Positions 1 to 37,797 of a DNA stretch of 64,000 nucleotides are shown here, piece by piece. Where the stretch lies: the NCBI RefSeq assembly GCF_965641715.1, contig NZ_OZ282453.1; one strand, written 5' to 3'. The DNA is from Escherichia coli (GTDB lineage Bacteria > Pseudomonadota > Gammaproteobacteria > Enterobacterales > Enterobacteriaceae). Both the position numbers and the translations under genes were made by a program. Positions within the stretch are counted from its first letter, which is position 1, and the number at the start of each line of letters is the position of its first letter. Under the pieces are notes generated by a model. That model was not told the DNA's origin, did no database searches, and saw only the letters and a list, made by a program, of their open reading frames with translations.

Positions 1-478
1 GTGGCAACGCTAATTTAGCCGGACGATAGTACAGTTTAATGCGGCTGATAATTGCGAGCTGTAGCGTATTCTCAGTCAATTTTGATTTATCCATTGACGG
101 AATCGCTTTAACGTTCATCCAGAATAAACTTTCCCGGTCCTGTGGCAATTGGTTATTTGTTGCATCAAGAATACGCAAGGTATTCTCTTTTTTTCCCTTC
201 ATCGCAAATAGAGGAGGCGTCACGATAAAACGACCATCCTTTACACCATCGGCATTTTCCACCCATGATTGAATTAAATAGGTACTATTTTCATCATTAT
301 TTGTCACGGCAAGTTGCACTTGTTTTTGCCCTGCCGGATAAATTACGCGAGTCGCACCTAAGGCCACTCCCGCTTCAGCACGTCCGGCAACCATCATTGC
401 CATGAACATCAGGATACCTGCCAGCAAGCAGAATGTTATTTCCTGCGATTTCCTTACATTGACGTTTTTATTACTCAC
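1..478 (-). CDS. fimC: Type 1 fimbrial periplasmic chaperone FimC, N-terminal part (GTG start at 478; 3' end runs off the window)
   Basis: Minus-strand translation from 478 reads [56 protein letters not shown]..., matching FimC; sits downstream of fimI as in the fim operon. Confidence 0.9.
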
Positions 479-514: not shown

Positions 515-1054
515 TTACTGATAGGTTAAAGAGAACCAGGCCTGGGCATTGGCGATGCCGCCAGTAACCCGACGCCCGGTAGCACGATATTTGGCGATGA
601 AATGTAGCGAAGTAGAGCCTGAGTAAAGCCGTTTCCAGTTTGCTGGAGGACGATTAATCGGTACGAGGTTTCCTTCATCATCAAACAACGCTACGCCAAT
701 ATTGGTGGCTATCCCTGGCCCCTCTCCCACGGAAAGCACATCCGGATTTTTACCATCCGCGACACCGTGAAACGCCACCCCCACACGTTCACTCACCACC
801 GTGCTACATTCCCGTAAATGAATAACAAAAGGCACCGGTGCGCTATCTTCCCCTACCGCATGAAACCGGTTACTGCTGATTTGCCCCATATTGACCGTCA
901 TTTGTTTATCACCGGCTTCAATCCGGCAAGTTTCCGCAATAATGACGCCCTGAAATTGCATATTTCCGCCGGGCAACGTGGTATTCCATTTATTTCCGGC
1001 CAGAGCAAACATTGGCAGCAACGACGCTAATAGAAATAATCTCTTCCTTTTCAT
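515..1054 (-). CDS. fimI: Fimbrin-like protein FimI (179 aa from the internal ATG at 1054; the ORF track extends to 1186)
   Basis: Product [30 protein letters not shown]... ends ...AWFSLTYQ; pilin fold; position between fimA and fimC. Confidence 0.9.
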
Positions 1055-1118
1055 CGTTATTTTTATCGCACAAGGGTGGGCATCCCTGCCCGTAATGACG
1101 TCCCTGAACCTGGGTAGG

Positions 1119-1667
1119 TTATTGATACTGAACCTTGAAGGTCGCATCCGCATTAGCTGCGCCAGGGGTTGCGACACCAATTGCATAATAACGCGCCTGG
1201 AACGGAATGGTGTTGGTTCCGTTATTCAGGGTTGTTTGTGCACTAAATGACGCACCATCCAGCGCCAACGCAGCTCCTGTTTTATCCAGGATCTGCACAC
1301 CAACGTTTGTTGCGCTACCCGCAGCAGAACTCTGCAGAGCCAGTACGTTGGTATGATTCGTGTCAATTGTTGTACCTAAGAAGGCAACAGCAGCTTTGCT
1401 TGCAACATCGGTATCGCAATCATTCAGCTGAATGTTAAAACCGACAGCAGAGCTGGTCGCTCCATCCTGGTCCAGCGAAGCGGTACGAACCTGACCTAAC
1501 TGAACGGTTTGATCAACAGAGCCTGCATCAACTGCGCAAGCGGCGTTAACAACTTCCCCTTTAAAGTGAACGGTCCCACCATTAACCGTCGTGGCAGCGG
1601 CCAGAGCCGCTGTAGAACTGAGGGACAGAGCCGACAGAACAACGATTGCCAGAGTTTTAATTTTCAT
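1119..1667 (-). CDS. fimA: Type 1 fimbrial major subunit FimA (182 aa from the ATG at 1667)
   Basis: [49 protein letters not shown]... ends ...ATFKVQYQ; the ORF-track start at 1724 is an upstream in-frame extension. Confidence 0.95.
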
Positions 1668-1786: not shown

Positions 1787-1795
1787 TTGGGGCCA
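1787..1795. repeat. fimS 9-bp inverted repeat, fimA-proximal
   Basis: TTGGGGCCA. Confidence 0.9.
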
Positions 1796-2051
1796 TTTTG
1801 ACTCATAGAGGAAAGCATCGCGCACAAACTTTTTCAGTTTATTTGTTGGCTTAATATTCTATTGTTATCTTTATTTATAGATTTTTATATTGCATGAGGT
1901 GGTTTTTGGAGAGAAGAATGAGGAAGATGCGTCGAGCCACAGAAACGTTAGCTTTACATATAGCGGAGGTGATGTGAAATTAATTTACAAGAGAAATAAT
2001 TTACATATCAAACAGTTAGATGGTTTTTGTCGTTTTTTAAAATTTTTATGC

Positions 2052-2081
2052 TTGAGAAAAAATACGTAACTTATTTATGAT
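2052..2081 (+). promoter_or_regulatory. Sigma-70-like promoter inside fimS (TTGAGA-N18-TATGAT), reading toward fimE in this assembly
   Basis: -35-like TTGAGA at 2052-2057 and -10-like TATGAT at 2076-2081; no comparable promoter found reading toward fimA at the other end of the switch. Confidence 0.5.
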
Positions 2082-2091
2082 ATGGACAGTT

Positions 2092-2100
2092 TGGCCCCAA
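2092..2100. repeat. fimS 9-bp inverted repeat, fimE-proximal
   Basis: TGGCCCCAA, the reverse complement of 1787-1795. Confidence 0.9.
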
Positions 2101-4858: not shown

Positions 4859-5278
4859 TGAACCACGATAGACAATGAGACAGGGCATCTCGCAATCTAT
4901 GGCAAACATCACTTCAGTTCTTTCTCATCGGGTGATGAAAACGCACTTCAGTCTGAAAGGAATATGAAAATGAGATCAACAGACACTCTATTTTATGACT
5001 CTGGGTAAAATGAATTGAGTAAGTGATCTAGCTTACGAACATTCAAATCAATTAAACATCAGAATAGATTTTATACTCAAGTATTTAATCTGGCTCTCTG
5101 TTTATTTAAATAATGTGGAAAGAGATTTTTCACAGGAGACATTATACAAAAAATATAAAATACAGCTATCGGTTGCCAAAGACACTATAAGCCTGGCAAA
5201 AAATATTACACAACATAAATGCTAATTGTTTATGCGGGCTTTGTATTGCTTTCTGTATCCTACAAATGAGTGAAATTT

Positions 5279-5995
5279 ATGAAAAAGGCTAAAATACTTT
5301 CTGGCGTATTATTACTGTGCTTTTCGTCACCATTAATTTCTCAGGCTGCAACACTTGACGTACGTGGTGGATATCGTAGTGGAAGCCACGCCTATGAGAC
5401 TCGACTCAAAGTCAGTGAGGGATGGCAAAATGGATGGTGGGCAAGCATGGAAAGTAATACCTGGAATACCATTCATGATAATAAAAAGGAAAATGCCGCA
5501 CTCAATGATGTTCAGGTTGAAGTTAATTACGCAATTAAACTTGATGATCAATGGACGGTGCGCCCGGGAATGTTAACGCATTTTAGCAGCAACGGCACAC
5601 GCTACGGACCCTACGTAAAACTGTCCTGGGACGCGACAAAAGATCTTAATTTTGGCATTCGCTATCGTTACGACTGGAAAGCTTACCGACAACAAGACTT
5701 ATCCGGTGATATGTCTCGTGATAACGTTCATCGTTGGGATGGATATGTCACTTACCATATTAATAGTGATTTCACCTTCGCATGGCAAACGACGCTATAC
5801 AGCAAACAGAACGATTATCGCTATGCAAACCATAAGAAATGGGCGACGGAAAATGCATTTGTTCTACAATACCATATGACGCCCGATATTACGCCATACA
5901 TAGAATATGACTACCTGGACCGTCAGGGTGTTTACAACGGCAGAGATAATTTATCGGAAAACAGTTATCGCATTGGTGTGTCATTTAAACTGTAG
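5279..5995 (+). CDS. nanC: N-acetylneuraminic acid outer-membrane channel NanC (238 aa from the ATG at 5279)
   Basis: MKKAKILSGVLLLCFSSPLISQA signal peptide, C-terminal ...YRIGVSFKL beta-barrel signature; divergent from fimB. Confidence 0.9.
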   Translation: MKKAKILSGVLLLCFSSPLISQAATLDVRGGYRSGSHAYETRLKVSEGWQNGWWASMESNTWNTIHDNKKENAALNDVQVEVNYAIKLDDQWTVRPGMLTHFSSNGTRYGPYVKLSWDATKDLNFGIRYRYDWKAYRQQDLSGDMSRDNVHRWDGYVTYHINSDFTFAWQTTLYSKQNDYRYANHKKWATENAFVLQYHMTPDITPYIEYDYLDRQGVYNGRDNLSENSYRIGVSFKL

Positions 5996-6014
5996 TAGAC
6001 AGGAGACAGTCACA

Positions 6015-7121
6015 ATGAATAAAACAATAACGGCGCTTGCTATCATGATGGCTTCATTTGCCGCAAACGCGTCTGTATTACCGGAAACTCCTGTGCCATT
6101 TAAAAGTGGTACCGGAGCAATTGATAACGACACTGTCTACATTGGTTTAGGTAGCGCAGGTACGGCATGGTACAAGCTGGAGACACAGGCCAAAGATAAA
6201 AAATGGACAGCGTTAGCTTCATTCCCTGGCGGACCAAGAGATCAAGCAACCTCGGCATTTATTGATGGTGATCTGTATGTGTTTGGCGGCATTGGCAAAA
6301 ATAGCAAGGGCTTGACTCAGGTATTTAATGACGTACACAAATACAACCCCAAAACCAATAGTTGGGTTAAATTGATGTCGCACGCACCGATGGGCATGGC
6401 GGGTCATGTGACTTTTGTACACAACGGCAAGGCTTATGTTACTGGCGGTGTTAACCAGAATATCTTCAATGGCTATTTTGAAGATCTCAACGAGGCTGGA
6501 AAAGATTCAGCCGCTATAGATAAAATCAACGCTCACTATTTTGACAAAAAAGCAGAAGATTATTTCTTCAATAAGTTTCTGTTGTCTTTTGATCCCTCAA
6601 CCCAGCAATGGAGTTACGCTGGCGAATCTCCCTGGTACGGAACGGCTGGTGCGGCGGTTGTGAATAAAGGTGATAAAACCTGGCTTATTAATGGCGAAGC
6701 CAAACCCGGATTGCGAACGGATGCCGTATTTGAACTTGATTTCACCGGTAATAATTTAAAATGGAATAAGCTTGCTCCCGTCTCATCACCAGATGGCGTC
6801 GCTGGCGGTTTTGCGGGGATAAGCAATGATTCTCTTATATTTGCCGGAGGGGCCGGATTCAAAGGTTCACGAGAAAATTACCAGAACGGTAAGAACTATG
6901 CGCATGAAGGCCTGAAAAAATCATATAGCACTGATATTCATCTTTGGCATAACGGGAAATGGGATAAATCGGGTGAATTATCGCAAGGTCGGGCCTACGG
7001 AGTATCATTGCCCTGGAATAATAGTCTATTGATTATTGGCGGTGAATCTGCAGGCGGCAAAGCGGTGACGGATTCAGTTTTGATCTCTGTGAAGGATAAT
7101 AAAGTTACAGTACAAAACTAA
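6015..7121 (+). CDS. nanM: N-acetylneuraminate mutarotase NanM (Kelch-repeat periplasmic protein)
   Basis: MNKTITALAIMMASFAANA signal peptide, repeated GG/Kelch motifs; AGGAGA ribosome-binding site before the ATG at 6015; the ORF-track start at 5907 is an extension into nanC. Confidence 0.9.
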   Translation: MNKTITALAIMMASFAANASVLPETPVPFKSGTGAIDNDTVYIGLGSAGTAWYKLETQAKDKKWTALASFPGGPRDQATSAFIDGDLYVFGGIGKNSKGLTQVFNDVHKYNPKTNSWVKLMSHAPMGMAGHVTFVHNGKAYVTGGVNQNIFNGYFEDLNEAGKDSAAIDKINAHYFDKKAEDYFFNKFLLSFDPSTQQWSYAGESPWYGTAGAAVVNKGDKTWLINGEAKPGLRTDAVFELDFTGNNLKWNKLAPVSSPDGVAGGFAGISNDSLIFAGGAGFKGSRENYQNGKNYAHEGLKKSYSTDIHLWHNGKWDKSGELSQGRAYGVSLPWNNSLLIIGGESAGGKAVTDSVLISVKDNKVTVQN

Positions 7122-7185
7122 CGCTTCAGGGCCCCAGTAAAGGGGCCCTGCTATCAATTTGTCATTTCAATTACGCGAAATTTAT

Positions 7186-8166
7186 ATGAACGCAATAATA
7201 TCGCCTGATTATTACTATGTTCTTACTGTTGCTGGTCAGTCTAATGCCATGGCGTATGGCGAAGGACTGCCATTACCGGACAGGGAAGATGCGCCTCATC
7301 CCAGAATTAAACAATTAGCGAGATTTGCGCATACGCATCCCGGAGGCCCGTCATGTCACTTTAACGACATTATTCCACTGACTCACTGCCCACACGATGT
7401 TCAGGATATGCAGGGTTATCACCATCCTCTGGCAACGAATCATCAAACACAGTACGGCACCGTTGGCCAGGCACTGCATATTGCACGGAAATTACTGCCC
7501 TTCATTCCTGATAATGCAGGGGTTCTCATCGTTCCATGTTGCCGTGGCGGATCGGCTTTTACCGCGGGCAGCGAGGGGACATATTCAGAACGGCACGGAG
7601 CCAGCCATGATGCTTGTCGTTGGGGAACGGATACTCCGCTGTACCAGGATTTAGTCAGCAGAACGCGAGCCGCACTGGCAAAAAATCCGCAGAACAAATT
7701 CCTCGGCGTATGCTGGATGCAAGGCGAATTTGACTTAATGACCAGTGACTACGCGTCACACCCTCAACACTTTAATCATATGGTTGAAGCCTTTCGTAGG
7801 GATCTAAAACAATACCATTCTCAGCTGAATAATATTACTGACGCGCCGTGGTTTTGCGGCGATACCACCTGGTACTGGAAAGAAAATTTCCCTCATGCGT
7901 ATGAAGCTATTTATGGCAATTATCAAAATAATGTTTTAGCTAATATTATTTTCGTCGACTTCCAGCAACAAGGTGCAAGAGGGCTAACGAACGCGCCTGA
8001 TGAAGATCCGGACGATTTAAGCACGGGATATTACGGTTCAGCGTACCGGTCACCGGAGAACTGGACGACGGCACTGCGAAGCAGTCATTTCAGCTCAGCA
8101 GCCCGTCGGGGGATTATTTCTGACAGGTTTGTAGAAGCAATTTTGCAGTTTTGGCGCGAAAGGTGA
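7186..8166 (+). CDS. nanS: 9-O-acetyl-N-acetylneuraminate esterase NanS
   Basis: MNAIISPDYYYVLTVAGQSNAMAYGEGLPLPD... (SGNH-type GQSN motif); third gene of nanCMS; a hairpin at 7128-7149 separates it from nanM. Confidence 0.9.
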   Translation: MNAIISPDYYYVLTVAGQSNAMAYGEGLPLPDREDAPHPRIKQLARFAHTHPGGPSCHFNDIIPLTHCPHDVQDMQGYHHPLATNHQTQYGTVGQALHIARKLLPFIPDNAGVLIVPCCRGGSAFTAGSEGTYSERHGASHDACRWGTDTPLYQDLVSRTRAALAKNPQNKFLGVCWMQGEFDLMTSDYASHPQHFNHMVEAFRRDLKQYHSQLNNITDAPWFCGDTTWYWKENFPHAYEAIYGNYQNNVLANIIFVDFQQQGARGLTNAPDEDPDDLSTGYYGSAYRSPENWTTALRSSHFSSAARRGIISDRFVEAILQFWRER

Positions 8167-10301: not shown

Positions 10302-12533
10302 TTAGTTCTCAACCATCAATCGGGAAAGTTTGGCAAAAATCGAACTCTTACTACTTTCGCCACTCCTGAGCATATCCAGGGTGAAGCTATTGAGGTAAGC
10401 ACCAGTTAACGGGTGGTTAAATACATCTACGGCCTTACCTTGGGCGTCCCATATCAGCAGATTTTCTACCAGGTTAGGCCGTGCAATAGTAGGATTTGTA
10501 GGCTGAGCATCGCTTACCAGAACAAACACTCCATTCACATGCGGTTGCAGGTAAATATGGTGATGCTTCATCTTTTGAGTTTTGGTCAACGAGTCGTATT
10601 TCGAGCGGCCCGGTGATATCAGATAGGGCAGTACGTTTTGCTCCAATTTTGCTGAGCGGGTGATGGTATAGCCGTTAAATTTATCACCTTTACGCTCCGC
10701 CAGCGCTTTTTCTTGTTCCTGATAAGCATATGAATCGACGATATTAAATTGCGCTGGGCCAATCAGGCGCGGCACGCGGGAGCTGTTATAGGTGGTAAGC
10801 AGCACATCTGCTGTGTGGTCGTAGAGATAGAAGCTTTTATCGAATAATTTCTTTAGTCGTCCCAGAGCTGGATGATCAACAGATAGATACTCGAATTCAC
10901 CTTCAGCGATCCCGGTATCAACCACCCTAAGTTGGCCGCGCTCTATTTTTAGTTCAACATATCCAAGCAGGGAGAGATAGCTTTTTGTTTTGCGTACTGA
11001 ATAGGCGGTATAGTGCCCATCCGCCAATTCTGGCAGTGGTATGTTATGTTGATTGAGTAAGCTCTCTTTGAACCATAGTTCAGTTTTTGTTCGGCGTACC
11101 TTACTTTTCAATAAGGTAACTGCTGACTTGAGACGACTGTGTGGTTTCGTCAGTTCGATTTCGTATTGTGCAGGGTTGCTTACCAATTGTTCATTAATAA
11201 AATCAATCGCATCCAGCAACTTACGATCAATATTCATTCCTTGTAAAACCACAGGCACCGGTTGCTGATTTAGCCACCCTTGCAAACGATCTAGCTTAAG
11301 CTGGGTATAGGTATCCCAGTTGAGTTCAGGCTGTTTTCGGGCGTCGTCAAAGGCTGCATAGAAATCATTGTACTCAACAGATTCATTCTCTTGCTGCCGG
11401 ATGCTGTTGCTTCGTTCTTCCTCTACCGCATTGAGTACCAGAATAGATGTATTGGCAGGCAGCTCAGCAAATCCGGTTTGTCGGGAATGCTTAAGCGATG
11501 CAAGAGGCCAGAGTTGATACCCAGGGAACTGGTTGGCTAATGCATCAAAGAAATAAGCTTCTTGCGTGACGCTGAATTCGACGCCGTTATTAACCACCAA
11601 CAGCGTATTAGCCAGCTGTTGATCGAGGTCGGTAGCAAACTGATTGACCTCGTGTGTAGCCTGAAATGGGATAGGTTGATGGGGGATCTCTAGTTCACTG
11701 AGGCGCTCGCTGGCAGCATTCATGACCACGTTATAGGTATAGACCTGGCATTCGCCATAGCCGCTGCGCTCACGAAAAAAATCCAGTTTGCTATCACGGG
11801 CATCAAGTTTGCGCCGAGCTTTAAGCCGACGATTATCGATGTTAAACCACACGCTGGTATCATCCAGGGATAGGTGCATCTCATCCGCCGGTTCGACCAG
11901 GAATTTTCGTTTGTGCAAGGTAAAAGCGAGTTCATTATATTCTGAGGCATAAATGTCGAGCTCAAAGGCTTCCATCACCCCGATGCCTTTTTTTTGTGTG
12001 ACGGGCTGACTCAGACGAGCGTTAAGGTAAAGCGTTGAGTTGAAGTAAGTCGGCGATACCGAAAAGCGCTCACTGGCTTTTTCCAGCATTACCATTTTCA
12101 AATGCAGGCTAAATAATCCCTGAATCAGGCGAGATAGGTCATGATTTTCAGCGGTGAGTTGCTGACAAAGCGTTTCAATACGTTCTGCCAACGTCCTATG
12201 AGCCTGACTGTTCGGGTTAGTTGCAGGCGCCAGGAAAAAAAAGACGTGATGGTAATTTGGTAAGCAATGCAGTTCATATTTTACCTCCTGCCCGGCCTCC
12301 AGCCCAAGCTTCTGCCGCACGCAAGATTTTACCTCCTGATGAATTCGCGCATAGTAATCAGCGGATTTTTCTTTTCGCTCTTTAGTAAAGCGCTGAACCA
12401 TAAAGTCTATCGTATAGATATTAGATACAGGGGCCAATAGACGCTGGATGGTCGTCAGCTGATCTTCTTCAAGCTTGATCAAATTGGTTCGGGCAATCGG
12501 AGCATCCGTCAGTTCATTCAAATTAGGGATCAT
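10302..12533 (-). CDS. Uncharacterised 743-aa protein, downstream partner of the helicase-like gene
   Basis: Long ORF whose ATG overlaps the stop of the upstream gene (ATGA at 12530-12533); no nucleotide-binding or methyltransferase motif recognised by eye. Confidence 0.7.
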   Translation of the reverse strand: MIPNLNELTDAPIARTNLIKLEEDQLTTIQRLLAPVSNIYTIDFMVQRFTKERKEKSADYYARIHQEVKSCVRQKLGLEAGQEVKYELHCLPNYHHVFFFLAPATNPNSQAHRTLAERIETLCQQLTAENHDLSRLIQGLFSLHLKMVMLEKASERFSVSPTYFNSTLYLNARLSQPVTQKKGIGVMEAFELDIYASEYNELAFTLHKRKFLVEPADEMHLSLDDTSVWFNIDNRRLKARRKLDARDSKLDFFRERSGYGECQVYTYNVVMNAASERLSELEIPHQPIPFQATHEVNQFATDLDQQLANTLLVVNNGVEFSVTQEAYFFDALANQFPGYQLWPLASLKHSRQTGFAELPANTSILVLNAVEEERSNSIRQQENESVEYNDFYAAFDDARKQPELNWDTYTQLKLDRLQGWLNQQPVPVVLQGMNIDRKLLDAIDFINEQLVSNPAQYEIELTKPHSRLKSAVTLLKSKVRRTKTELWFKESLLNQHNIPLPELADGHYTAYSVRKTKSYLSLLGYVELKIERGQLRVVDTGIAEGEFEYLSVDHPALGRLKKLFDKSFYLYDHTADVLLTTYNSSRVPRLIGPAQFNIVDSYAYQEQEKALAERKGDKFNGYTITRSAKLEQNVLPYLISPGRSKYDSLTKTQKMKHHHIYLQPHVNGVFVLVSDAQPTNPTIARPNLVENLLIWDAQGKAVDVFNHPLTGAYLNSFTLDMLRSGESSKSSIFAKLSRLMVEN

Positions 12534-15500
12534 GAGACTTTTCCTTTAGTCGGCAACTTTTCTACACCCAGCAGGGTTAGTAACATTGGGTTAATGTTCA
12601 ATGTCATGCTCAGTTTCGAATTTTCCAGAGCTCGTCCGCTCTCTCGATTTTTGGGCTGATAGTACTGATAGTCGGTTTGCAACAGGTTAAGGTAGTGGAT
12701 CGTGTGATCCACGTTATCTTGCCACATCAGATTATTGGGGTTCTGGCTGTAGGCGACGTTCAGATAGACAAATCGAATGCGTTCGTAACGGCCTGACAGC
12801 ACAGCCTGAAGCTGTTTCTGTCCCTCTGTATCCGCCTTTTGGCTGGTGATATTACGGATCTGGCGAATCTTGTTGTTGCTTTTCTCAAGCGTTTCTTCTG
12901 CCCGCGTTAAATCATCCAACTGCGTCGCCCAGCGTTTAACGTCGATGCAGAGCAGGTCGTTACCCACTTCAATAAAGCGGTCAAAAAACTCATATACTAG
13001 CGGTTCAAGGCGTTCAAACACCTGTTGATCAGAAAGTGGGGTAACGCCATAGCTTTTTAGCACTTTATCGAAGAGATATTCACCGACATTGCCTTTGAGC
13101 AACGGAACTAGCCTGGGGTTGGGTACCCATTTTTTGAATGCCGTTTCCTGGATGTTGTCACATTCACGAATCAACTCGCCGACCAGGTTGCCGGGGGTAA
13201 AATCGACATCGTTTCTATACTGCGGAAAGAGGGTGAGCTCAGGCCGGTACTCTCTTGCGCCGCCAGCGAAATCCGACAGGGCGGAATAATCTCTGTGGAC
13301 AAGTCCATCCGGGCCGCGTTTGTGGCAAAGTAAAATAGTTTGATTGCCCTGATGGCGGTCGATAAACAGGGCGTGGTGGATTGATTGCATTTGCCGATTG
13401 GCGGCATACAAGGAATTAGCCTGAAGTTTTTCCAGCCAACGCATGGGATTGGTAAAGGAGTCAGAATCGCGGAATAAATTACACAATTCGAGATATTCAA
13501 GGTTGCCGGCGCGTACCTGATTTATCCAGTCGGTTTTCAGGACTCGCTTATGAACAGCATCGATGCGGCGACCATTTTCTACGATAGCCTGTTCAAACGC
13601 ATACCGCTGTTCTGCATCTCTAAATGACTGGTTCTGACTCAGCTTTTCGCACTCCTCCATTAGGCGGTGGTTAAGCAAGGACATGCTTTCTGATACTACC
13701 TCGTTACCGCTATCTTCACTGAGAGCGGCGAACTGGAATGCAACATTACGGAACACATCGCGGGGTAAAAAGATTTCTGTTTTCAATAGAGTGTCGCGAC
13801 GCTCGACTCGCCCTACGGCCTGCACGACGACTTTGAATAAGCTCATATCATGTTCGGCCATTAACAGGCGATAGTTTTCGCCGTGGGCGAAATTAACGTT
13901 GAAATCGGCCAGCTTGTGGACGGTAATATCGTCATCAGCGTAGTGTTTAAGCACGGTAACGTAGTTAGGTAATGTATTAAGATTGCCGCTGTTGTCCTTT
14001 ACTTCGCTGTAAAACGAGGAGTTGATGAGCACTAAGCGCTCAAAATCGACATCCAGACGTGGTGCATTGATATCATTAATATCGCCGTCATGGTATTTCA
14101 CAAAGTAGTTGAGGCCAGTGCCTGCACTTTTGTAGCTGCTCATAAATACCAGTACGGTATTGCTGTTCTTGAGATAGGTTTCTTGCCTAATATCTTCGAC
14201 ATTAGCCAGTGGTGAATCGAAAAAGACCAAATGGACTGTGTGACGCCCTTTGAATGGGGTAAAGGTCAGGATCTGGTCATGTTTCTTATCGTTATCCGTT
14301 TTATCATCGCACCGGGAGTGCATACCGTACTGCTGACGCCAGGCTGATTGATGAGTGCGCCAGGCGCTGATAAAGGCCCGCTTAAATGTCCCTGAAAGGG
14401 ACAAAATCAGGCTGTTTTTACCCTCGTAGGCGGCAAGCAATAACGCTTCAAGCTCCCGCTGGTACTGACGCCGTTTATAGGTATTTTTCAGGTCGTACTC
14501 CAGCGGTTTCTTCAGCGCGTCGAAAAAGTTGTCATACGTCCTGCGATAGATCTCACAATTTTGGTAGATATCGGTCAATTTTAACTGCTTATCATCGAAC
14601 ACCCTGAAGTCGACGTTGCGGATACTGGCTCTCAACGCGCGTAGTGCTCTAAGCGTATCGATATCTGTTTTTTTACGTTCAATGACTCGATAGCCAAGGT
14701 CACGGCTATAGCGCTCCAGGAAGTGACGATTGAAGTTACCGTTTTTGGTGTGGCTAAAACCACTGGTGGCGCTAAATCCAATCACTTTATTGTGCGTGCC
14801 CGTTAATAAACGTAGCAGCATGGCTTCAGGCAACTCTTGTACCAGATCCATCTCAAACGCCAGAATAATTGTACGCTCGGCTCCACTGTTCACGTAATTG
14901 AGTTCAACTATCGGCGTCATCGTGAATACGGTTTTGGGTTGCAGATAAGTGTAGAAATGATCAATCAACAAGTTTTTATCGGTGGTGCGATCGAAGATAT
15001 GTCGCACCACTCCAGCTACATTATTGGCTGCGTCAACAAATTGGCCCAAAGGTGTATTCTGGCTGCTGGAGTTATCCTGGCCACCATTTTTTACCCAGCG
15101 CTTAAAGTGTCGGTTGGTGATATCAGAACAGGCGGCGAGGATGACGGAGACCAATTGGAACAGATCGTGCAGTGTGGGATTGGTGTCGCTGGCATCATTT
15201 TCGACTTCGTAATATAGCTCGGTGCGCGTTATGTCGCCTTCGCTGTTGCGCATACGAATGCGTTTCAGCCCCTCTTCATTAACGTACATTTTGGGGTTAA
15301 AACTGAACACATTCCGGGTAATGGAAATGATGCGTTCGGCGGCGTCGCCGTTAACTTCGAATGCTCCTAACTGGTCGCGAAACATCTCCAGGATCGAGCC
15401 CAGCGTCGTACCGGGTGATAATTCGCACTTTTTCGCCAGTAGGTCTCGAAGGATGGTGATGAATTTGACCATCTCTTGCTCAAAGGTCGTTTGCGCTTCT

Positions 15501-17239
15501 TTGGGCTTTTTCCGGCGCTCCAGGCTGAGTACCGCATTGTGAATACGTCCCGCGACAGAGATAACATGCGCCAGATTATTTTCCTGTGTGATTAGCTTTA
15601 CATGGCATGTTTCTTCAAGACGGGTGTAGGCTTCATGTAGTTCATCAATGATTACCGTAAAGCGAATATTTTTCTGGCGAAAAGGGCAGTCTGGATTACG
15701 TCTGAAGTGTTCATCACGAAGATAAGCAACCTGCCCGGAATGGCCAGCTGCCGCAACGGTGCTGATCTGTGGATCTTTGGGAGCCAGCTTGCCACCAATC
15801 AGCAAGTCGAAACCTACGGACTCAAAATGCACGCCTTCACCTCGCTGACGAGGCGCCAGTCGGTAAGTTGATGTGTCGAACTTATTTGTAGTCATTAATA
15901 GCACCGACGGGCGGTACTGGCAAACTTCGAAAGGCAATACCTGTTTGATAAGCTCGAAGTAGACTTCGTGTACGCTTAGTTCAGACTTGCTTGGTTTTCG
16001 TGCTGTCTCCGCGTGTTGCATTCGCTCTTGGCGCGCCTGGAGCCCGCGACGAATGTACTCTTTAATGGAAGCTTTTTCACTATCTGGTCCAAATAGTAAT
16101 TTACAGGCTGACTCAATCGTATTGCGGATACTATGACGACAGTTTTTTAGCTGCTCTTCAAGAATTTCTCTTTCGTAGTTGTTATCCTGAGAACCGTATG
16201 TTGTCAGCTTTTTTAACTGCTCTTCACAGCGATCAATTTGTGAGACATGGTAATTGAGCGAACGCATTGCGCTGCCAATATATTTGCTACCTTTCGCCCC
16301 TTCGTACCACTGAATATAGCGGTCGCGATTTTTCAGGCCCGTGGCCCAGTCCATAAAGTCGAGATCGGCAATATCCTTACGAGAGAGAACGCAAATGAAT
16401 TCGCCGCCAGAAGCCAGAATTTTATCTTTCTGGCTGCTATCCAGGTCGATTTGTGATTTTTGCGGCGACATGAACAGCAGGTTGGTAAAGCCACCTTCGG
16501 GAAACAGATCATCTGACTTTTGTTTTTTGGCGAAACACTCCAGATATTCGACATACCCTTGAATTACGCCATAACTTTTGCCAAACCCCGTGCCATCGGA
16601 ACTGAAGATGACCTCCGCGCCATCACGTTCATGCACGTGGTAAAGTTGAGAAACTTGGGCGCGGCAAGCGTTAATATCTTCAACCAGCGTTATGTCAGGA
16701 ATTTGCCTGGAGATGAGATCTTGCAGATTATTATTGATAGTTATCTCTCCCACACGCTCACACTCACGGTAACTATTGATGGTTATTTGGCTGCTTTCGA
16801 GCAGAATCTTTTCCACTTGCATGGGAGCAAGATGCAAGGCTGTTGCAATTTCATTGATAGTATCTGATAGAGGTTCGTGTGGATTGCTAATCGTGAAGTG
16901 GTTTAGTACTGCTGCAACGGTATCTGGATGCAATGCTTTTCTGAGAGTGGGGAAGGTGAGGCTGTAATCGTATAGCGCCAAATCATTGTTTATCAGACAG
17001 CGAAACAGCTGTTTAGTGGGATCGCCTCCAGGACGGCTGGCAAATCCCAGGATTTTTGCCTGTTCGAGTCGATACAACAATGCTGCAGCATCGCGATCAG
17101 GTGAGTCAAATGCATCGTGAAGCTGCTGGCTAAATGGCATTGTGGCATTCAGCCGGTTATGGCTGACCAACGCGGAAAAGTGCTGACGTACCAAGGTAAG
17201 CAGCTTACAATCTTCCTTTATAGTCCAGTTTTTTCTCAT
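12530..17239 (-). CDS. Large SF2-helicase-like NTPase (about 1570 aa from the ATG at 17239; the ORF track begins at a GTG at 17275)
   Basis: Walker A DGTGFGKSYG, DExH-like Walker B VIIDELHEAY, motif III-like GFSATSGF, motif V-like SSYKSAGTGLNYF, motif VI-like QAVGRVERR, then about 400 aa of C-terminal sequence without recognisable motifs; GGGGAAG ribosome-binding site before the ATG at 17239. Confidence 0.7.
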   Translation of the reverse strand: MRKNWTIKEDCKLLTLVRQHFSALVSHNRLNATMPFSQQLHDAFDSPDRDAAALLYRLEQAKILGFASRPGGDPTKQLFRCLINNDLALYDYSLTFPTLRKALHPDTVAAVLNHFTISNPHEPLSDTINEIATALHLAPMQVEKILLESSQITINSYRECERVGEITINNNLQDLISRQIPDITLVEDINACRAQVSQLYHVHERDGAEVIFSSDGTGFGKSYGVIQGYVEYLECFAKKQKSDDLFPEGGFTNLLFMSPQKSQIDLDSSQKDKILASGGEFICVLSRKDIADLDFMDWATGLKNRDRYIQWYEGAKGSKYIGSAMRSLNYHVSQIDRCEEQLKKLTTYGSQDNNYEREILEEQLKNCRHSIRNTIESACKLLFGPDSEKASIKEYIRRGLQARQERMQHAETARKPSKSELSVHEVYFELIKQVLPFEVCQYRPSVLLMTTNKFDTSTYRLAPRQRGEGVHFESVGFDLLIGGKLAPKDPQISTVAAAGHSGQVAYLRDEHFRRNPDCPFRQKNIRFTVIIDELHEAYTRLEETCHVKLITQENNLAHVISVAGRIHNAVLSLERRKKPKEAQTTFEQEMVKFITILRDLLAKKCELSPGTTLGSILEMFRDQLGAFEVNGDAAERIISITRNVFSFNPKMYVNEEGLKRIRMRNSEGDITRTELYYEVENDASDTNPTLHDLFQLVSVILAACSDITNRHFKRWVKNGGQDNSSSQNTPLGQFVDAANNVAGVVRHIFDRTTDKNLLIDHFYTYLQPKTVFTMTPIVELNYVNSGAERTIILAFEMDLVQELPEAMLLRLLTGTHNKVIGFSATSGFSHTKNGNFNRHFLERYSRDLGYRVIERKKTDIDTLRALRALRASIRNVDFRVFDDKQLKLTDIYQNCEIYRRTYDNFFDALKKPLEYDLKNTYKRRQYQRELEALLLAAYEGKNSLILSLSGTFKRAFISAWRTHQSAWRQQYGMHSRCDDKTDNDKKHDQILTFTPFKGRHTVHLVFFDSPLANVEDIRQETYLKNSNTVLVFMSSYKSAGTGLNYFVKYHDGDINDINAPRLDVDFERLVLINSSFYSEVKDNSGNLNTLPNYVTVLKHYADDDITVHKLADFNVNFAHGENYRLLMAEHDMSLFKVVVQAVGRVERRDTLLKTEIFLPRDVFRNVAFQFAALSEDSGNEVVSESMSLLNHRLMEECEKLSQNQSFRDAEQRYAFEQAIVENGRRIDAVHKRVLKTDWINQVRAGNLEYLELCNLFRDSDSFTNPMRWLEKLQANSLYAANRQMQSIHHALFIDRHQGNQTILLCHKRGPDGLVHRDYSALSDFAGGAREYRPELTLFPQYRNDVDFTPGNLVGELIRECDNIQETAFKKWVPNPRLVPLLKGNVGEYLFDKVLKSYGVTPLSDQQVFERLEPLVYEFFDRFIEVGNDLLCIDVKRWATQLDDLTRAEETLEKSNNKIRQIRNITSQKADTEGQKQLQAVLSGRYERIRFVYLNVAYSQNPNNLMWQDNVDHTIHYLNLLQTDYQYYQPKNRESGRALENSKLSMTLNINPMLLTLLGVEKLPTKGKVS

Positions 17240-18364
17240 TCTTCTTCCCCTTAATATAAATGCACCTGCAACCACTCAGCCAAACGCTCAACGTCAAAAC
17301 CCGTAATCCATACTCCCACGCCAAAAACGTCTTCGATAAATATTCATCATATTTTCGAGGCACTTTTCAGAGATGCTCTTGGCAAGACGGGACTCAGGGG
17401 GTAAACCTTCCTGTAGTAAATTGCTTAGCGTCTGCTTAACTTTCCCGAGCGTATTTTTTCAACTACGGCAGCAAATGAGACGGTCTTAAAACCGTGCAGG
17501 ATAGGCCATATCTACAACGTGTTTACTACTTGAGCACACATTGTGATATGGCAGTCACCTTTCCGACAAATGGTGAACCGTCCCTGACGAACAACAACAT
17601 TAACGCATATCTCTTCATCGCCTGATCAAAGTAGCTGCCAACTATTATTCGCCTCAACAATGAGTTTTTTTACTAACGATTTCTACTACCTTCCCAAAGC
17701 GACCACAACAATCAAAAATATTGTTTACACATCAGTCTCATATCACCGGAGTAAGTTGACTATTGATAAACCATTTCAAGATATTAATAGCTGATCATAC
17801 TTCCCCAAAGTGCTTATTTATAGCGAAGGCAAATAGCATAAACTGAAGGGCGAATTGTTAAATCATACCGTGAATGAGCTGAAGAACAAGCATAAAAATT
17901 ATATCATTTACATGACTTATGTGTTTTAGTTAAATGATAAATAGGCAGTATAAAATCCAATTCAACAGCCGAGTTCAAGCGATTAATTTTTTGATGAGCT
18001 TATCAAGCACGAGCAGCGATACCAGCAAATCCACTTGGTTGCTTGAAGAATATGACTCCTTCAACACATAGCAGATTATCTCCGCCGTTGGTAGAGAACC
18101 GTTCACCGTTGTTAGTCAACAGTTATAAATTTATATTAATGATTAGAAGAATCTATCTCGGGGTAGATCATCAACATTACTTATTCTAAACCACGTTACA
18201 CATGATCTCCGGGGCAGCGAAGTCATCAAAAAAGAGTATTATAAAACTCCGCCCTTAAGGAGAAAGGTTTCCTGGCGGTTGTAATGCCGTTGACGATACA
18301 GCGCACAACACGGATATAAACAACCATTTGATTGATTAATATCTGAAGGGCTGTTTATATTTAA

Positions 18365-30409: not shown

Positions 30410-32116
30410 ATGGACAACGCTGAACAGCAATTTCTGAACGATCTGGATACTAAGTTCTGGAAAGCCGCAGACAAGCTACGCGCCAATATGGACGCAGCCA
30501 ACTACAAGCATGTGGTACTTGGGCTTATCTTTCTGAAGTATGTTTCAGATGCCTTTGACGCACGCCAGAAGGAACTGAAAGGACTGTTTGAAGACAAGTC
30601 CAACCCGGACAACATTTACGCGCTGTCTCGTGACGATTACGACACAGAAGAGGCGTACCAGCAGGCGATCGCAGAAGAGCTGGAAGTTCAGGATTACTAC
30701 ACTGAGAAAAACGTCTTCTGGGTACCCAAACTGGCTCGCTGGGAAACGCTTAAAACCAATGCTGCTCTACCTGTAGGGACGGTTCTGGGGAAAGACGATA
30801 GCGGCAAAGATATCGTCATGACGTCAGTATCGAAGCTGATTGATATCGCTCTGGATACTATCGAAAACAGCAACCCGAAACTGAAAAACATCCTTAACTG
30901 TATCGGACACTATCAGCTTGGTAACGACCTGCTAATTAGCCTGATTAACGTTTTCTCCGATACCAGTTTCAGCGAACCCAAATACAATGGCGTGAAGCTC
31001 AATTTGAAGAGCAAAGATATTCTCGGCCACGTTTACGAATACTTCCTTGGTCAGTTTGCACTGGCGGAAGGCAAACAGGGCGGCCAGTATTACACGCCGA
31101 AAAGCATCGTTACGCTGATTGTTGAAATGCTCCAGCCCTACAATGGCCGCGTGTATGACCCGGCGATGGGATCTGGCGGTTTCTTCGTTTCCAGCGATCG
31201 CTTTATCGAAGCACACGCTGATGAAAAGCATTACAACGCCGCTGAACAAAAACGCAATATCTCCGTTTACGGGCAGGAGTCCAACCCTACCACCTGGCGT
31301 CTGGCTGCGATGAATATGGTGATTCGCGGTATTGATTTTAACTTCGGTAAACAAAACGCCGATACGTTCCTGAACGACCAGCACCCGGATTTACGTGCCG
31401 ATTTTGTTATGGCGAACCCGCCATTCAACATGAAGGAGTGGTGGAACGCCAAGCTGGAAAACGACGTGCGCTGGAAATACGGCACGCCGCCTCAGGGCAA
31501 CGCCAACTTTGCGTGGATGCAGCACATGATCCACCACCTGGCGCCAAAAGGCTCGATGGCGCTGCTGCTGGCGAACGGTTCGATGAGCTCTAACACCAAC
31601 AACGAAGGCGAGATCCGCCGCAACCTGATCGAAGCCGATCTGGTCGAGTGCATGGTCGCGCTGCCAGGTCAGTTGTTTACCAACACCCAAATCCCGGCCT
31701 GTATCTGGTTCCTGACCAAAGACAAATCCGGCGGTAACGGCAAAGCACACCGTAAAGGCGAAGTGTTGTTTATCGACGCGCGTCAGATTGGCTTTATGAA
31801 AGACCGCGTGCTGCGTGATTTTAGCCGTGAAGATATCGCCAGAATTGCTGATATCTTCCACGCCTGGCAGACGGATAAAGGCTATGAAGACGAAGCTGGA
31901 TTCTGTTTCTCCGCAACGCTGGAAGATATCCAGAAAAACGACTTTGTGTTGACCCCTGGGCGCTATGTCGGTGCGGCCGAGCAAGACGAAGACGATGAGC
32001 CTTTTGCCGAGAAGATGGCACGACTGACGGCGCAGCTGAAAGATCAGCTGGAAGAGAGCGCGAAGCTGGAAGCACAGATTAAGGCGAATCTGGGGGGGCT
32101 GGGTTATGAGTTCTAA
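30410..32116 (+). CDS. hsdM: Type I restriction-modification methyltransferase subunit HsdM
   Basis: N6-adenine methyltransferase motifs: DPAMGSGGFF (AdoMet binding) and NPPF (MANPPFNM). Confidence 0.9.
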   Translation: MDNAEQQFLNDLDTKFWKAADKLRANMDAANYKHVVLGLIFLKYVSDAFDARQKELKGLFEDKSNPDNIYALSRDDYDTEEAYQQAIAEELEVQDYYTEKNVFWVPKLARWETLKTNAALPVGTVLGKDDSGKDIVMTSVSKLIDIALDTIENSNPKLKNILNCIGHYQLGNDLLISLINVFSDTSFSEPKYNGVKLNLKSKDILGHVYEYFLGQFALAEGKQGGQYYTPKSIVTLIVEMLQPYNGRVYDPAMGSGGFFVSSDRFIEAHADEKHYNAAEQKRNISVYGQESNPTTWRLAAMNMVIRGIDFNFGKQNADTFLNDQHPDLRADFVMANPPFNMKEWWNAKLENDVRWKYGTPPQGNANFAWMQHMIHHLAPKGSMALLLANGSMSSNTNNEGEIRRNLIEADLVECMVALPGQLFTNTQIPACIWFLTKDKSGGNGKAHRKGEVLFIDARQIGFMKDRVLRDFSREDIARIADIFHAWQTDKGYEDEAGFCFSATLEDIQKNDFVLTPGRYVGAAEQDEDDEPFAEKMARLTAQLKDQLEESAKLEAQIKANLGGLGYEF

Positions 32117-33461
32117 GTTTCGGAAAGTAAAACTATGTGAAATCCTCTCATTTAAGACAGGTAAACTCGACTCGAATGCAGCAGTAGATAATGGTTGTTA
32201 TCCTTTTTTTACTTGCTCGCCAGTTACACTTTCGATTAATACGCATGCTTTTGACACTGAAGCAGTATTATTAGCTGGTAATAACGCAAATGGGGTATTT
32301 TCAGTAAAATACCACAATGGTAAGTTTAATGCTTACCAAAGAACATATGTTATTACTCCTCTGGATAATTCAGCGGTCAATGTGAAATGGCTTTATTTTA
32401 GAATAAAATATGTTACGTCAGAATTACAATCAATGTCAGTTGGCACTGCAACAAAATTCTTAACAAAAAAGATTTTGGATTCATTTGAGATTGAACTGCC
32501 AACTTTTGAAGAGCAAACATATCAAGCTCAGATTTTATGGGCGTTACAGGATAAATTAGCTAATAATGAAGCTATAAACCAAACTCTCGAACAAATGGCG
32601 CAAGCCCTGTTCAAAAGCTGGTTTGTCGATTTTGAACCGGTAAAAGCCAAAATGGCAGCGTTGGAAGCGGGCGGTTCGCAGGAAGACGCGACACGTGCCG
32701 CCATGACGGCAATTTCCGGGAAAGATGCTGATGCGTTGGTGGTTTTTGCGCGTGAACATCCTGAGCAATATGCCGAGTTAAAAGCCACGGCAGAACTGTT
32801 TCCGTCTGCGGTGCAGGAAAGTGAGTTGGGGGCGATTCCTAAAGGATGGGGGGTGGCGTCAATTAGTGAGATGGGGAAGATTACTTGTGGCAAAACTCCG
32901 TCAAAAAAAGAACCAAAGTATTACGGTGGTGATGTTCCATTCATAAAGATACCAGATATGCATGGGCAACTCTTTGTGCTTAAAACTAATGAATATTTAA
33001 GCGAAGTCGGTTCAAAGTCGCAACTAAAAAAACTTGTGCCCGCTAACTCTATCTGTGTTAGTTGTATAGCTACTATTGGTGTTGTTTCTATCACCAATGA
33101 ACCATCTCATACCAATCAGCAAATAAATTCGGTTACACCTTATAAGAGTTCATTACTTTATTATCTTTATTTTTGTATATTGGGATTGAAAGATCATCTT
33201 CACGTTTTAGGTAGCGCAGGTAGTGCAACCTTAAATGTCAATACGTCTACTTTCTCAGGAATTAAAATCGCTCAGCCTGATGCTAAAGTATTGGAGTTAT
33301 TTCATGCCAAATGTACACAATTATTTAATGAGATTAAATCGCTCTGTGTACAAACTGAATCACTTGCACAACTACGAGACACCCTCCTCCCCAAACTCCT
33401 CTCCGGAGAAATTACGTTACCGGATGCCGAGGAAATAGCCAAGGAAGCTGACTATGTTTAA
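32106..33461 (+). CDS. hsdS: Type I restriction-modification specificity subunit HsdS
   Basis: Overlaps the hsdM stop; two AT-rich variable segments alternating with GC-richer conserved segments, as expected for two target-recognition domains. Confidence 0.85.
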   Translation: MSSKFRKVKLCEILSFKTGKLDSNAAVDNGCYPFFTCSPVTLSINTHAFDTEAVLLAGNNANGVFSVKYHNGKFNAYQRTYVITPLDNSAVNVKWLYFRIKYVTSELQSMSVGTATKFLTKKILDSFEIELPTFEEQTYQAQILWALQDKLANNEAINQTLEQMAQALFKSWFVDFEPVKAKMAALEAGGSQEDATRAAMTAISGKDADALVVFAREHPEQYAELKATAELFPSAVQESELGAIPKGWGVASISEMGKITCGKTPSKKEPKYYGGDVPFIKIPDMHGQLFVLKTNEYLSEVGSKSQLKKLVPANSICVSCIATIGVVSITNEPSHTNQQINSVTPYKSSLLYYLYFCILGLKDHLHVLGSAGSATLNVNTSTFSGIKIAQPDAKVLELFHAKCTQLFNEIKSLCVQTESLAQLRDTLLPKLLSGEITLPDAEEIAKEADYV

Positions 33462-34647
33462 AGTCGATCAGCCCAGTAATAGCCTGCAACCGCTTCAGGA
33501 AACCACCTTCACTAACGCGGGTTTCACCGAGCGCTACCACTTACAGGAGTGGCTGGCAAAGCATCCGCAAGCATTGACTCGCAACAGCGATGACGAACTA
33601 CTTATCATCCAGAAAGAGTTTGCCGGGTTTGACGACACCAAAGAGCGGTTAGATCTGCTGGCGATCGACAAAGACGGCAATCTGGTGATCATCGAGAACA
33701 AGCTCGATGATTCCGGGCGTGATGTCGTATGGCAGGCGCTGAAGTACGCGGGCTACTGCGCGAATCTACGCAAAGAACATATTGTTGAGATCTTCCAGCG
33801 TTACCTCGATCAGAACGATCCAGAAGAAACACGCCCAGCCTCTGATGTGCTCGCAGAATTCCTCGAACATGAAAGCCTGGATGAAGTGCAAATTAACCAA
33901 AGCCGTTCCCAGCGTGTGATGATGGTTGCGGCAAATTTCCGCAAGGAAGTTACCAATACTGCGCTCTGGCTGATGCAGTTCAACATCCGTGTCCAATGCT
34001 TTAAGGTCACGCCTTACCGTTATGGAAATGATGTATTCATCGACATCCGCCAGGTTATTCCCACACCGGAAGCCGAATCCTACATGATCGGTATGGCGCA
34101 GAAGGAAGCAGAAGAACAATCAACCAGCGGTGAACTGAAACAGAGCCAACGCCTGCGCAAGGCGTTCTGGACGCAGATGCTGGAGAAATTTCATGCCAGC
34201 GACTGTACGCTGTATAACAACATCAGCCCGTCTATGGATCACTGGTTATGTGCAGGCTCTGGCATAAGTGGTATGCCTTATAGCCTAATATTCAGCAAGA
34301 AGGAAATCCGCGTAGAATTATGGATTTCGCGAGCATCGGCAGACATCAACACCATGGCGTTGAACTGGCTTGAACAACACCGCACATCTGTCGAAGAGGT
34401 ATTCGGCAACCCACTGGAGTGGCTATCGCTACCTGGTAAAAAAGCCTGCCGTATTCAATACCGCCAAAAAATAGATGGCTTCCAGCAGGAAAATTGGCCG
34501 CAAATGATCGACTGGCTGGTGGAACATATGACCCGTTTTGAGAATGCGCTTTCGCCGTATCTGCCACAGCTTAACCAGTTGATCAAGCAGACCTTTAACG
34601 GGCATGATGAAGCTGAAAATACAACAGAAGAAGCCGAACACGTATAA
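33454..34647 (+). CDS. Uncharacterised 397-aa protein inside the RM operon, with a PD-(D/E)xK-like motif
   Basis: Start overlaps the hsdS stop; 16 bp before hsdR; RLDLLAIDKDGNLVIIENKLDD resembles a D...E-x-K nuclease core; no Walker A. Confidence 0.6.
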   Translation: MFKVDQPSNSLQPLQETTFTNAGFTERYHLQEWLAKHPQALTRNSDDELLIIQKEFAGFDDTKERLDLLAIDKDGNLVIIENKLDDSGRDVVWQALKYAGYCANLRKEHIVEIFQRYLDQNDPEETRPASDVLAEFLEHESLDEVQINQSRSQRVMMVAANFRKEVTNTALWLMQFNIRVQCFKVTPYRYGNDVFIDIRQVIPTPEAESYMIGMAQKEAEEQSTSGELKQSQRLRKAFWTQMLEKFHASDCTLYNNISPSMDHWLCAGSGISGMPYSLIFSKKEIRVELWISRASADINTMALNWLEQHRTSVEEVFGNPLEWLSLPGKKACRIQYRQKIDGFQQENWPQMIDWLVEHMTRFENALSPYLPQLNQLIKQTFNGHDEAENTTEEAEHV

Positions 34648-34662
34648 CACAGGACGTTACCG

Positions 34663-37600
34663 ATGCTTACCGAAGACGACTTAGAACAGCTTTGCCAGGG
34701 CTGGTTTGCCGAACAAGGTTGGGAAATCCATCATGGGCCAGATATTGCCCCCGATGGCTGTAACCCGCAACGCGCCAGCTATCATGATGTATTCCTGACG
34801 CCCGTGTTGAACGCCTGCCTGCAAAAAATCAACCCGCACCTGCCCACTGACGTCTTCGAACAGGTCATCTCCCGTATTACTCGCGCTGAAAGCCCGGATC
34901 TGATTGCCAGTAACAAAGCCTTTCATCACTGGTTGCTGGAAGGGGTTCCGGTACAGTACCGTCGCGACGAAGAACTTATCCACGACCACGCCCTGCTGGT
35001 GGATTTTAGCCAGCCGCAAAACAACCGTTTTATGGTGGTCAATCAAATGACTATCAGCGGAACGAAACAGCCTCGCCGCCCGGATATCATCTGCTTTATT
35101 AACGGAATACCACTGGCGGTTGTGGAACTAAAAAGCCCTGTCGATGACAAGGTAGATATCTGGGATGCGTACCACCAGTTACAGACCTATAAAGATGAAA
35201 TACGCGACCTGTTTATCAGCAATGAAGCGTTGATTGTCAGTGATGGTTATCTGGCGCGTGTGGGGTCCCTGACCGCCACGGAAGAACGTTTTATGCCGTG
35301 GAAGACCATCAGCAATGAAAATGACAAGCCGTTGCTGGAATGGCAACTGGAAACTATGGTACGGGGTTTCTTCAACCGGGAATTGCTGCTCGACTATATC
35401 CGCTATTTCGTTCTGTTTGAAAATAACGATGAAAGGCTAATTAAGAAAATAGCTGGTTATCACCAGTTCCACGCGGTGCGTGAGGCCGTGCAGGCGACGA
35501 TCGTTGCTTCGACCGGTAAGCAACTGGTACTGCACAGTAATATTCAGCCAGGCAGTAAGAAAGCAGGCGTGGTCTGGCATACGCAGGGTTCCGGTAAAAG
35601 CATCTCCATGTGTTGCTATGTCGGCAAACTGTTGCAACAGCCGGAGATGGGCAACCCGACGATTGTTGTTGTGACCGATCGTAACGATCTGGACGGCCAG
35701 CTTTATGGTACATTCTGCCAGGCACAGGAGCTGCTCAAGCAAATGCCGGTACAGGCAGATGATCGTGAAACATTGCGTGATCTGCTTGCAACTCGCGATG
35801 CTGGCGGCATTATCTTTACCACCGTGCAGAAATTCTCCCCGGAAGAAGGGGAAAACGCCCATCCGATTCTCAATGGACGCAGCAATATCGTTGTTATTTC
35901 CGATGAAGCGCACCGCAGCCAGTACGGCATGAAAGCCAACCTGGATCGTAAAACCGGCGTCTATAAATACGGTTACGCTAAACATATGCGCGACGCGCTA
36001 CCTAACGCCTCGTTTCTGGGATTTACCGGTACACCGGTTTCGGCAGAGGATCGCGATACTCGCGCTGTATTTGGCGATTACGTCTCAATTTATGATATTC
36101 AGGACGCTGTGGACGATGGCGCAACGGTGCCTATTCACTATGAATCCCGGCTGGCAAAACTCGATCTCAATCATGAAGAGCTGGCGGCGCTGTCCGATCA
36201 GGTTGAAGAACTGATTGAGGACGATGAGCTGGATCAGAGAGAAAAAACCAAAGGTGAATGGAGCCGTCTGGAGAAACTAGTTGGTGCTAAACCACGTCTT
36301 CAGCAGATCGCTGCCGATCTGATTTCTCACTTTGAGAAGCGCAATACCGTAATGGACGGCAAGGCGATGATTGTCGCCATGAGCCGTGAAATCTGCGTCC
36401 ATCTTTACGATGAAATTATTGCGTTGCGTCCGGAGTGGCACGATGACGATCCTGAAAAAGGGCAAATCAAAATCGTGATGACCGGTACAGCATCTGATAA
36501 GGCAATGCTGCAACCGCATATCTACAACAAACGGACTAAAAAACGGCTGGAATCCCGCTTCAAGAATGTGAACGACCCGCTGAAGCTGGTGATAGTGCGT
36601 GATATGTGGCTGACCGGCTTTGATGCCCCATGCTGTCACACTATGTATATCGACAAACCGATGCGCGGCCATAACCTGATGCAGGCTATTGCCCGTGTCA
36701 ACCGGGTATTCAAAGACAAGCCCGGCGGGCTGGTGGTGGATTATATTGGTATCGCCAATGAGCTGAAACTGGCGCTGAAAACTTATACCGATGCAAACGG
36801 TAAAGGTGATGCGACCGTCAACGCTGAAGAAGCACTGGCAATCATGCTGGAAAAGCTGGACATCATCCACGGTATGTTTGCCAAAACGGCAACGTCAGCG
36901 GGTTTTGATTACACCGGCTTTGAAGCTCATGCGCAGAAGTTGCTAGTACCAGTTGCAAACTATGTGCTCGGCCTTGAAGACGGTAAGAAGCGTTTTCTCG
37001 ATAACGTACTGGCAATTACTAAAGCCTGGTCGCTTTGCTGTACGCTGGATGCGGCGCAGCCTTATAAACTAGAGATTGCTTTCTTGTCGGCGGTAAAAGC
37101 TGCTATCAGCAAATTCACCAGTGTGGACAAAAAAATAAGCCAGGCTGAGAAGAACTCCGCGCTGAAACAGATTCTGGATAATGCCGTAATTGCTAACGGC
37201 GTGGATGATATTTTCACGCTGGCTGGTCTGGATAAACCGAATATTGGCTTGCTTTCAGATGAATTCTTGCAGGAAGTCCGCGATATGCCATATCGAAATC
37301 TGGCGGTAGAGCTGCTGGAAAAACTGATTAATGACGGTATCCAGTCCCGTACAAAAAACAATGTAGTGCAGGAGAGGAAATATTCAGAACGTCTTCAGGC
37401 TGTATTGATTAAATACAACAACCGGGCTATTGAGACGGCGCAGGTGATTGAAGAGCTGATCCAGATGGCGAAGGATTTTCAGTCTGCAATGGCGCGTGAT
37501 GATGCGCTTGGCCTGAATCCTGACGAGATCGCTTTCTACGATGCACTGGCAGAAAACGAAAGCGCCGTCCGGGAGTTAGGAGATGAGGTACTTAAGAAAC

Positions 37601-37797
37601 TGGCGATAGAAGTGACGCTGAAGCTGCGCCAATCCACTACCGTTGACTGGCAGGTACGGGAAAGCGTTCGTGCAAGGCTGCGTATCCTGGTTCGCCAGAC
37701 TCTGCGTCGGTATAAGTATCCGCCAGATAAAACGCCGGGTGCGGTGGAGTTAATTTTGAAACAAGCGGAAGTTATTTCGAATCATTGGACGATGTGA
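34663..37797 (+). CDS. hsdR: Type I restriction-modification endonuclease/helicase subunit HsdR
   Basis: 1044 aa; Walker A TQGSGKS, DEAH box [11 protein letters not shown], and further helicase motifs. Confidence 0.9.

Follow-up and report, generated by a model that had tools for sequence, protein, structure and literature searches.

The fim switch of Escherichia coli is a textbook case of promoter inversion. In K-12, FimB inverts the fimS element in both directions at a rate of about 1e-2 per cell per generation (PMC2647292). FimE is strongly biased towards inversion from ON to OFF and is dominant, and the opposite inversion from OFF to ON requires FimB or unlinked FimB-like recombinases (PMC2647292, PMC11316696). 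In addition, fimS carries a Rho-dependent terminator (Dorman and Corcoran, PMC2647292). In the OFF orientation in K-12, this terminator is placed such that the fimE transcript is shortened and destabilised, and in the ON orientation transcription of fimE continues across the switch into fimA (PMC2647292).

Several published assays and sequences allow the orientation of fimS to be read. Digestion of the 726-bp OL4/OL20 amplicon with BstUI yields fragments of 539 and 187 bp in the OFF state and of 433 and 293 bp in the ON state (Conway et al., PMC9993118). In the phase assay used for UPEC, the Phase_L/Phase_R product is digested with HinfI, and the diagnostic band has 359 bp for OFF and 489 bp for ON (PMC4349694). 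A Fis site located at the promoter-distal end of fimS has been probed with a 135-bp product of the primers BSFORBIO and BSREVBIO (PMC9993118). Finally, fimS of the UTI89 reference genome is stated to be OFF (PMC6458436).

The locus described here lies in a 64-kb stretch of E. coli DNA, which is referred to as the window. With a probability of about 0.96, positions 1787-2100 of the window are the canonical invertible promoter element fimS of E. coli, assembled in phase OFF.

Anatomy of the fim region

On the minus strand, the window encodes fimB, fimE, fimS, fimA, fimI, and the start of fimC in this order, and the later genes of the fim operon fall outside the window (Table 1). RefSeq matches carry the same gene annotations as the fim region of the window. 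The spacer between fimE and fimA comprises 480 intergenic nucleotides and contains a 314-bp segment, which is delimited by a pair of 9-bp repeats. In this pair, TGGCCCCAA is the exact reverse complement of TTGGGGCCA, and further copies of the repeat were not found in the 64-kb window. The boundaries that a preliminary description of this DNA had assigned to the element are exact. In the output of a repeat finder the pair is longer, with 22 nt and a complementarity of 77%, and this imperfect extension would fit the non-identical recombinase half-sites that surround the core repeats in K-12. Size, repeats, location, an outward-directed sigma-70-like promoter, and the natural occurrence of both orientations all agree with a fimS switch of the FimB/FimE tyrosine-recombinase type.

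A consensus scan of positions 1600-2300 returned TTGAGA-N18-TATGAT as the top sigma-70 match with 10 of 12 positions. The -10 hexamer of this site stops 10 bp short of the fimE-proximal repeat inside fimS, and the direction is toward fimE and away from fimA. Hexamers, spacer, strand, direction, and fimE-proximal position had been given correctly in the preliminary description, and the site is accompanied by two weaker 9/12 matches within fimS, at 1862-1891 (+) and 2011-1982 (-). The three promoter-like sites in the scanned region are not above chance, as shuffled sequences give 1.9 +/- 1.2, and therefore the fimA promoter PfimA is not callable by statistics. Its putative identity is based on sequence identity to the characterised K-12 switch, with the fimE-proximal repeat, both hexamers, and all bases between them being identical to MG1655, and on the published assays. 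A full-text literature search on the promoter hexamers gave irrelevant matches only. In the RefSeq annotation of MG1655, neither fimS nor its promoter is entered as a feature, so that the orientation is not decidable by annotation alone.

Transcription from PfimA is predicted to start near 2086-2088 on the plus strand. Such transcripts would begin just inside fimS, cross the repeat, and enter fimE at its 3' end, with fimA being encoded on the other strand. A terminator scan found no intrinsic terminator in 1600-2300, which is expected because the terminator of fimS is Rho-dependent and not definable by sequence here.

Apart from FimB and FimE, no additional Fim-type recombinases, i.e. paralogs of these two proteins, are encoded in the 64-kb window. 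While these two recombinases match K-12 with 100% identity, many residues of FimA deviate from the K-12 protein. As fimA has been described to be under strong positive selection (PMC6458436), the divergence of FimA is consistent with such a selection. Between fimA and fimI, the window contains the 35-nt sequence of the sRNA FimR2, which is unchanged from MG1655. FimR2 arises by processing of the transcript of the fim operon (PMC9723502) and, for this reason, would also depend on the ON orientation.

Table 1. Coordinates of the fim switch and of adjacent features in the window
Feature	Position	Strand	Basis or remark
fimC, 5' part	1-478	-	by position, from gene order and spacing in MG1655 and A30
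fimI	515-1054	-	ORF end at 515; start by analogy with the 540-nt fimI of MG1655 and A30
FimR2 sRNA sequence, fimA 3' region	1074-1108	-	exact match to the fimR2 feature of MG1655
fimA, major fimbrial subunit, cut off from its promoter here	1119-1667	-	ORF, alignment with MG1655 fimA, annotation of RefSeq matches
fimS invertible element, 314 bp	1787-2100		perfect 9-bp inverted repeats at both ends
fimA-proximal inverted repeat IRR, 9 bp, TTGGGGCCA	1787-1795	+	copy unique in the 64-kb window
HinfI site (GACTC), sole one in 1600-2200	1800-1804		yields 358 + 201 bp, OFF pattern
BstUI site (CGCG), sole one in fimS	1819-1822		188 bp from the OL4 end, OFF pattern
Fis-binding region, promoter-distal end of fimS	1829-1864	-	identical to the wild-type sequence that corresponds to mutagenesis oligo FBSFOR2
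Putative PfimA promoter: -35 TTGAGA 2052-2057, 18-nt spacer, -10 TATGAT 2076-2081	2052-2081	+	10/12 sigma-70 match
fimE-proximal inverted repeat IRL, 9 bp, TGGCCCCAA	2092-2100	+	copy unique in the 64-kb window
fimE, tyrosine recombinase (ON-to-OFF), 198 aa	2148-2744	-	100% identical to MG1655 FimE
fimB, tyrosine recombinase (both directions), 200 aa	3222-3824	-	100% identical to MG1655 FimB

Orientation of the switch

In-silico PCR of the window with the primers OL4 and OL20 results in a product of 727 bp, which is cleaved by BstUI into fragments of 188 and 539 bp, corresponding to OFF. When positions 1787-2100 are inverted in silico, fragments of 434 and 293 bp are obtained, which are within 1 bp of the published ON pattern. 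The same digest of the MG1655 reference sequence yields 188 and 540 bp. With the primers Phase_L and Phase_R, the window gives a product of 559 bp, and its predicted HinfI fragments of 358 and 201 bp again correspond to OFF; after inversion, the fragments have 75 and 484 bp and are thus 5 bp off the quoted ON sizes of 489 and 70 bp. The UTI89 reference sequence yields 358 and 201 bp in this digest.

The primers BSFORBIO and BSREVBIO are convergent at 1768-1902 in the window and delimit exactly 135 bp. This is the case in the window orientation only, and in-silico inversion puts both primers on the same strand. Therefore, the promoter-distal end of fimS adjoins fimA, and the promoter end adjoins fimE. 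Across the region, the window is collinear with UTI89 (NC_007946.1) and MG1655 (NC_000913.3).

Thus, four independent tests, namely BstUI digestion, HinfI digestion, the primers of the 135-bp probe, and the reference genomes, agree and support phase OFF for the sequence as given. This is the reading at which the preliminary description had arrived from the position of the promoter. Of the checks it had suggested, the orientation-specific PCR with asymmetric digestion comes out in its favor in silico, as both enzymes give OFF sizes for the window and, to within 1 bp (BstUI) and 5 bp (HinfI), ON sizes for the inverted construct. The window is also collinear with a genome published as OFF.

Orientation among complete genomes

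To determine the frequency of each orientation, positions 1500-2400 (901 nt) were compared with the complete RefSeq genomes of E. coli, both in the form found in the window and with fimS inverted in silico, and a collinear match over at least 80% of the query was required. The window (OFF) orientation was found in 4458 complete genomes and the inverted orientation in 251. Of 4725 genomes that matched the query at all, 4709 were scorable for orientation, and about 95% are OFF. Copies whose inversion breakpoints coincide exactly with the repeats occur in close relatives and in several laboratory derivatives of K-12. An example is strain A16, to which the inverted query aligns without interruption along its entire 901 nt at 99.7% identity, the value of the best inverted match. 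Both orientations are present among the assemblies, including different assemblies of K-12 MG1655 and of the DH series. OFF is the expected default orientation, also in reference genomes, and contains little information on the strain, because it is shared by 4458 of the 4709 scorable genomes.

Function of the switch and alternative readings

What the promoter and the terminator do in this strain, and how fast its switch flips, is adopted from the literature, and the following sequence of events is proposed accordingly. In the OFF orientation, PfimA adjoining the fimE-proximal repeat would fire toward fimE, leaving the fimAICDFGH operon with its start at 1667 (-) without a promoter. The Rho-dependent terminator of fimS would shorten and destabilise the fimE transcript, as suggested by the K-12 literature. 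Recombination of the two 9-bp repeats by FimB would then flip the 314 bp. The -10 hexamer would thereby be moved to 1811-1806 on the minus strand and, by prediction, would precede the fimA start codon by about 130 nt, and fimbriae would be expressed. FimE would return ON cells to OFF.

This scheme agrees in part with the preliminary description, according to which the genome would not express type 1 fimbriae until FimB or FimE inverts the element. The role of FimB stands, while that of FimE has to be withdrawn, as FimE acts almost exclusively from ON to OFF (PMC2647292, PMC11316696). Similarly, the sequence is OFF, as had been proposed, but a silent genome does not follow from it, since an assembly represents the consensus of a culture, and a culture normally contains cells of both states. 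It is indeed likely that the assembled orientation is such a consensus or a choice of the assembler, and that the culture was a mixture of ON and OFF cells which conveys no strain-specific information on fimbriation. As FimB, FimE, and both repeats are intact, switching is to be expected, and the inversion rate known for FimB of K-12 (PMC2647292) as well as the occurrence of both orientations among complete assemblies, including those of MG1655 and the DH series, point in the same direction. A mixed culture complements the OFF call on the given sequence and does not contradict it.

Different conclusions would have to be drawn if the switch were locked OFF by mutation, either through a regulatory mutation as in O157:H7 or by disruption of fimB, so that the strain never makes type 1 fimbriae. 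The OFF orientation itself would fit, and, compared with MG1655, fimS carries five substitutions and the A-run to the left of the fimE-proximal repeat differs by 1 nt. However, fimS is complete with 314 bp, its repeats are perfect, its alignment with K-12 is gap-free, the products of fimB and fimE are 100% identical to those of K-12, and neither the repeats nor the promoter hexamers carry a substitution; in addition, the nearly identical fimS (99.7%) of strain A16 is inverted. Locking of the O157:H7 type is not indicated for these reasons and is very unlikely; this explanation was rejected on account of the full-length fimS, the perfect repeats, and the K-12-identical recombinases. The switch rather looks functional, judging from its intact repeats, from FimB and FimE, and from the lack of an O157-type deletion. 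The same differences from K-12, i.e. the five substitutions in fimS and the A-run shortened by one base in a flank bound by the recombinases and IHF, could shift the bias or rate of switching, although the chance of this is small. In that case, OFF would be a strain-specific set-point and not the usual FimE-dominated default. It is even harder to maintain that the orientation is actually ON and that the true fimA promoter lies elsewhere, for example at TTGATA-18-TAAATT (2011-1982, minus strand), which reads toward fimA. This site is a 9/12 sigma-70-like match within fimS, but in DNA this rich in AT, promoter-like matches are no more frequent than expected by chance (3 vs 1.9 +/- 1.2). Moreover, all three published orientation tests and the comparison with UTI89 indicate OFF, and the Fis site, which is promoter-distal according to the literature, is on the fimA side here. 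An ON orientation of the sequence is therefore extremely improbable.

With fimS assembled in phase OFF, the locus is an already known system in its usual state, and the finding is correct but ordinary. Its importance beyond correct annotation is small. As a caution, the orientation in an assembly reflects the state that prevailed in the sequenced culture at that time and should not be regarded as a stable genotype, and an assembled OFF orientation should not be taken to mean that a strain lacks type 1 fimbriae.

Other features of the window

A genomic island at about 8170-43400 separates the nan genes (nanC/nanM/nanS region, 5270-8166) from leuX. The leuX gene for tRNA-Leu(CAA) is located at 43310-43394 (-) and adjoined by a P4-type integrase gene at 41841-43187 (-). 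Positions 8001-33000 are covered to at least 80% in only 43 of 5426 complete genomes. The island encodes a restriction endonuclease for phosphorothioated DNA at 40750-41670 (-), and it also has CbtA/YeeU and RelE/CopG toxin-antitoxin pairs as well as RadC, DUF932, and GTPase genes. A type I restriction-modification locus at 30410-37797 (+) consists of hsdM (30410-32116), hsdS (32106-33461), and hsdR (34663-37797). The gene for a 397-aa protein at 33454-34647, between hsdS and hsdR, matches the PADLOC candidate defence family PDC-S11 (E=1e-177), and a 580-aa ORF following hsdR at 37862-39604 has no family match.

Two large ORFs at 10302-12533 (-) and 12530-17275 (-), encoding 743 and 1581 aa, respectively, overlap by 4 bp at their stop and start codons. 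Neither has a match in PADLOC, NCBIfam, or Pfam, and both are annotated as 'hypothetical protein' in E. coli A30. They lie among defence-type genes in the leuX-associated island, and the pair could be an uncharacterised two-gene system. Outside the island, a full-length match to the Rfam family Ysr276 (RF02850; 179.6 bits, E=7e-54) is located at 54407-54601 (-), antisense within a 503-aa ORF at 53849-55360 (+).

Comparison with known fim switches

The fimS element of MG1655 (NC_000913.3), located between fimE (b4313) and fimA (b4314), has the same position, 314-bp length, and orientation as that of the window. The 9-bp repeats and the promoter region are identical, as are the FimB and FimE proteins (100%). 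The two elements are collinear and differ by 5 substitutions in a gap-free alignment of 314 bp (about 98% identity). Outside the element, the A-run left of the fimE-proximal repeat is one base shorter in the window, and the stretch from the fimA-proximal repeat to the fimA start codon has two substitutions. As a whole, the 600-bp region from fimE to fimA aligns to MG1655 with 99% identity and without rearrangement.

The switch of the UPEC strain UTI89 (NC_007946.1) has a collinear arrangement of fimE, fimS, and fimA with about 98% identity and the same HinfI fragments of 358 and 201 bp. UTI89 has unlinked recombinases such as FimX, whereas the window is without an extra FimB/FimE paralog within its 64 kb. 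In EHEC O157:H7 and EPEC E2348/69, the same locus is OFF as in the window (PMC6458436, PMC9096935). In these strains with a locked-OFF switch, however, the OFF state arises through a regulatory mutation of the switch region or through regulatory repression, whereas the window has a full-length fimS with intact repeats and recombinases.
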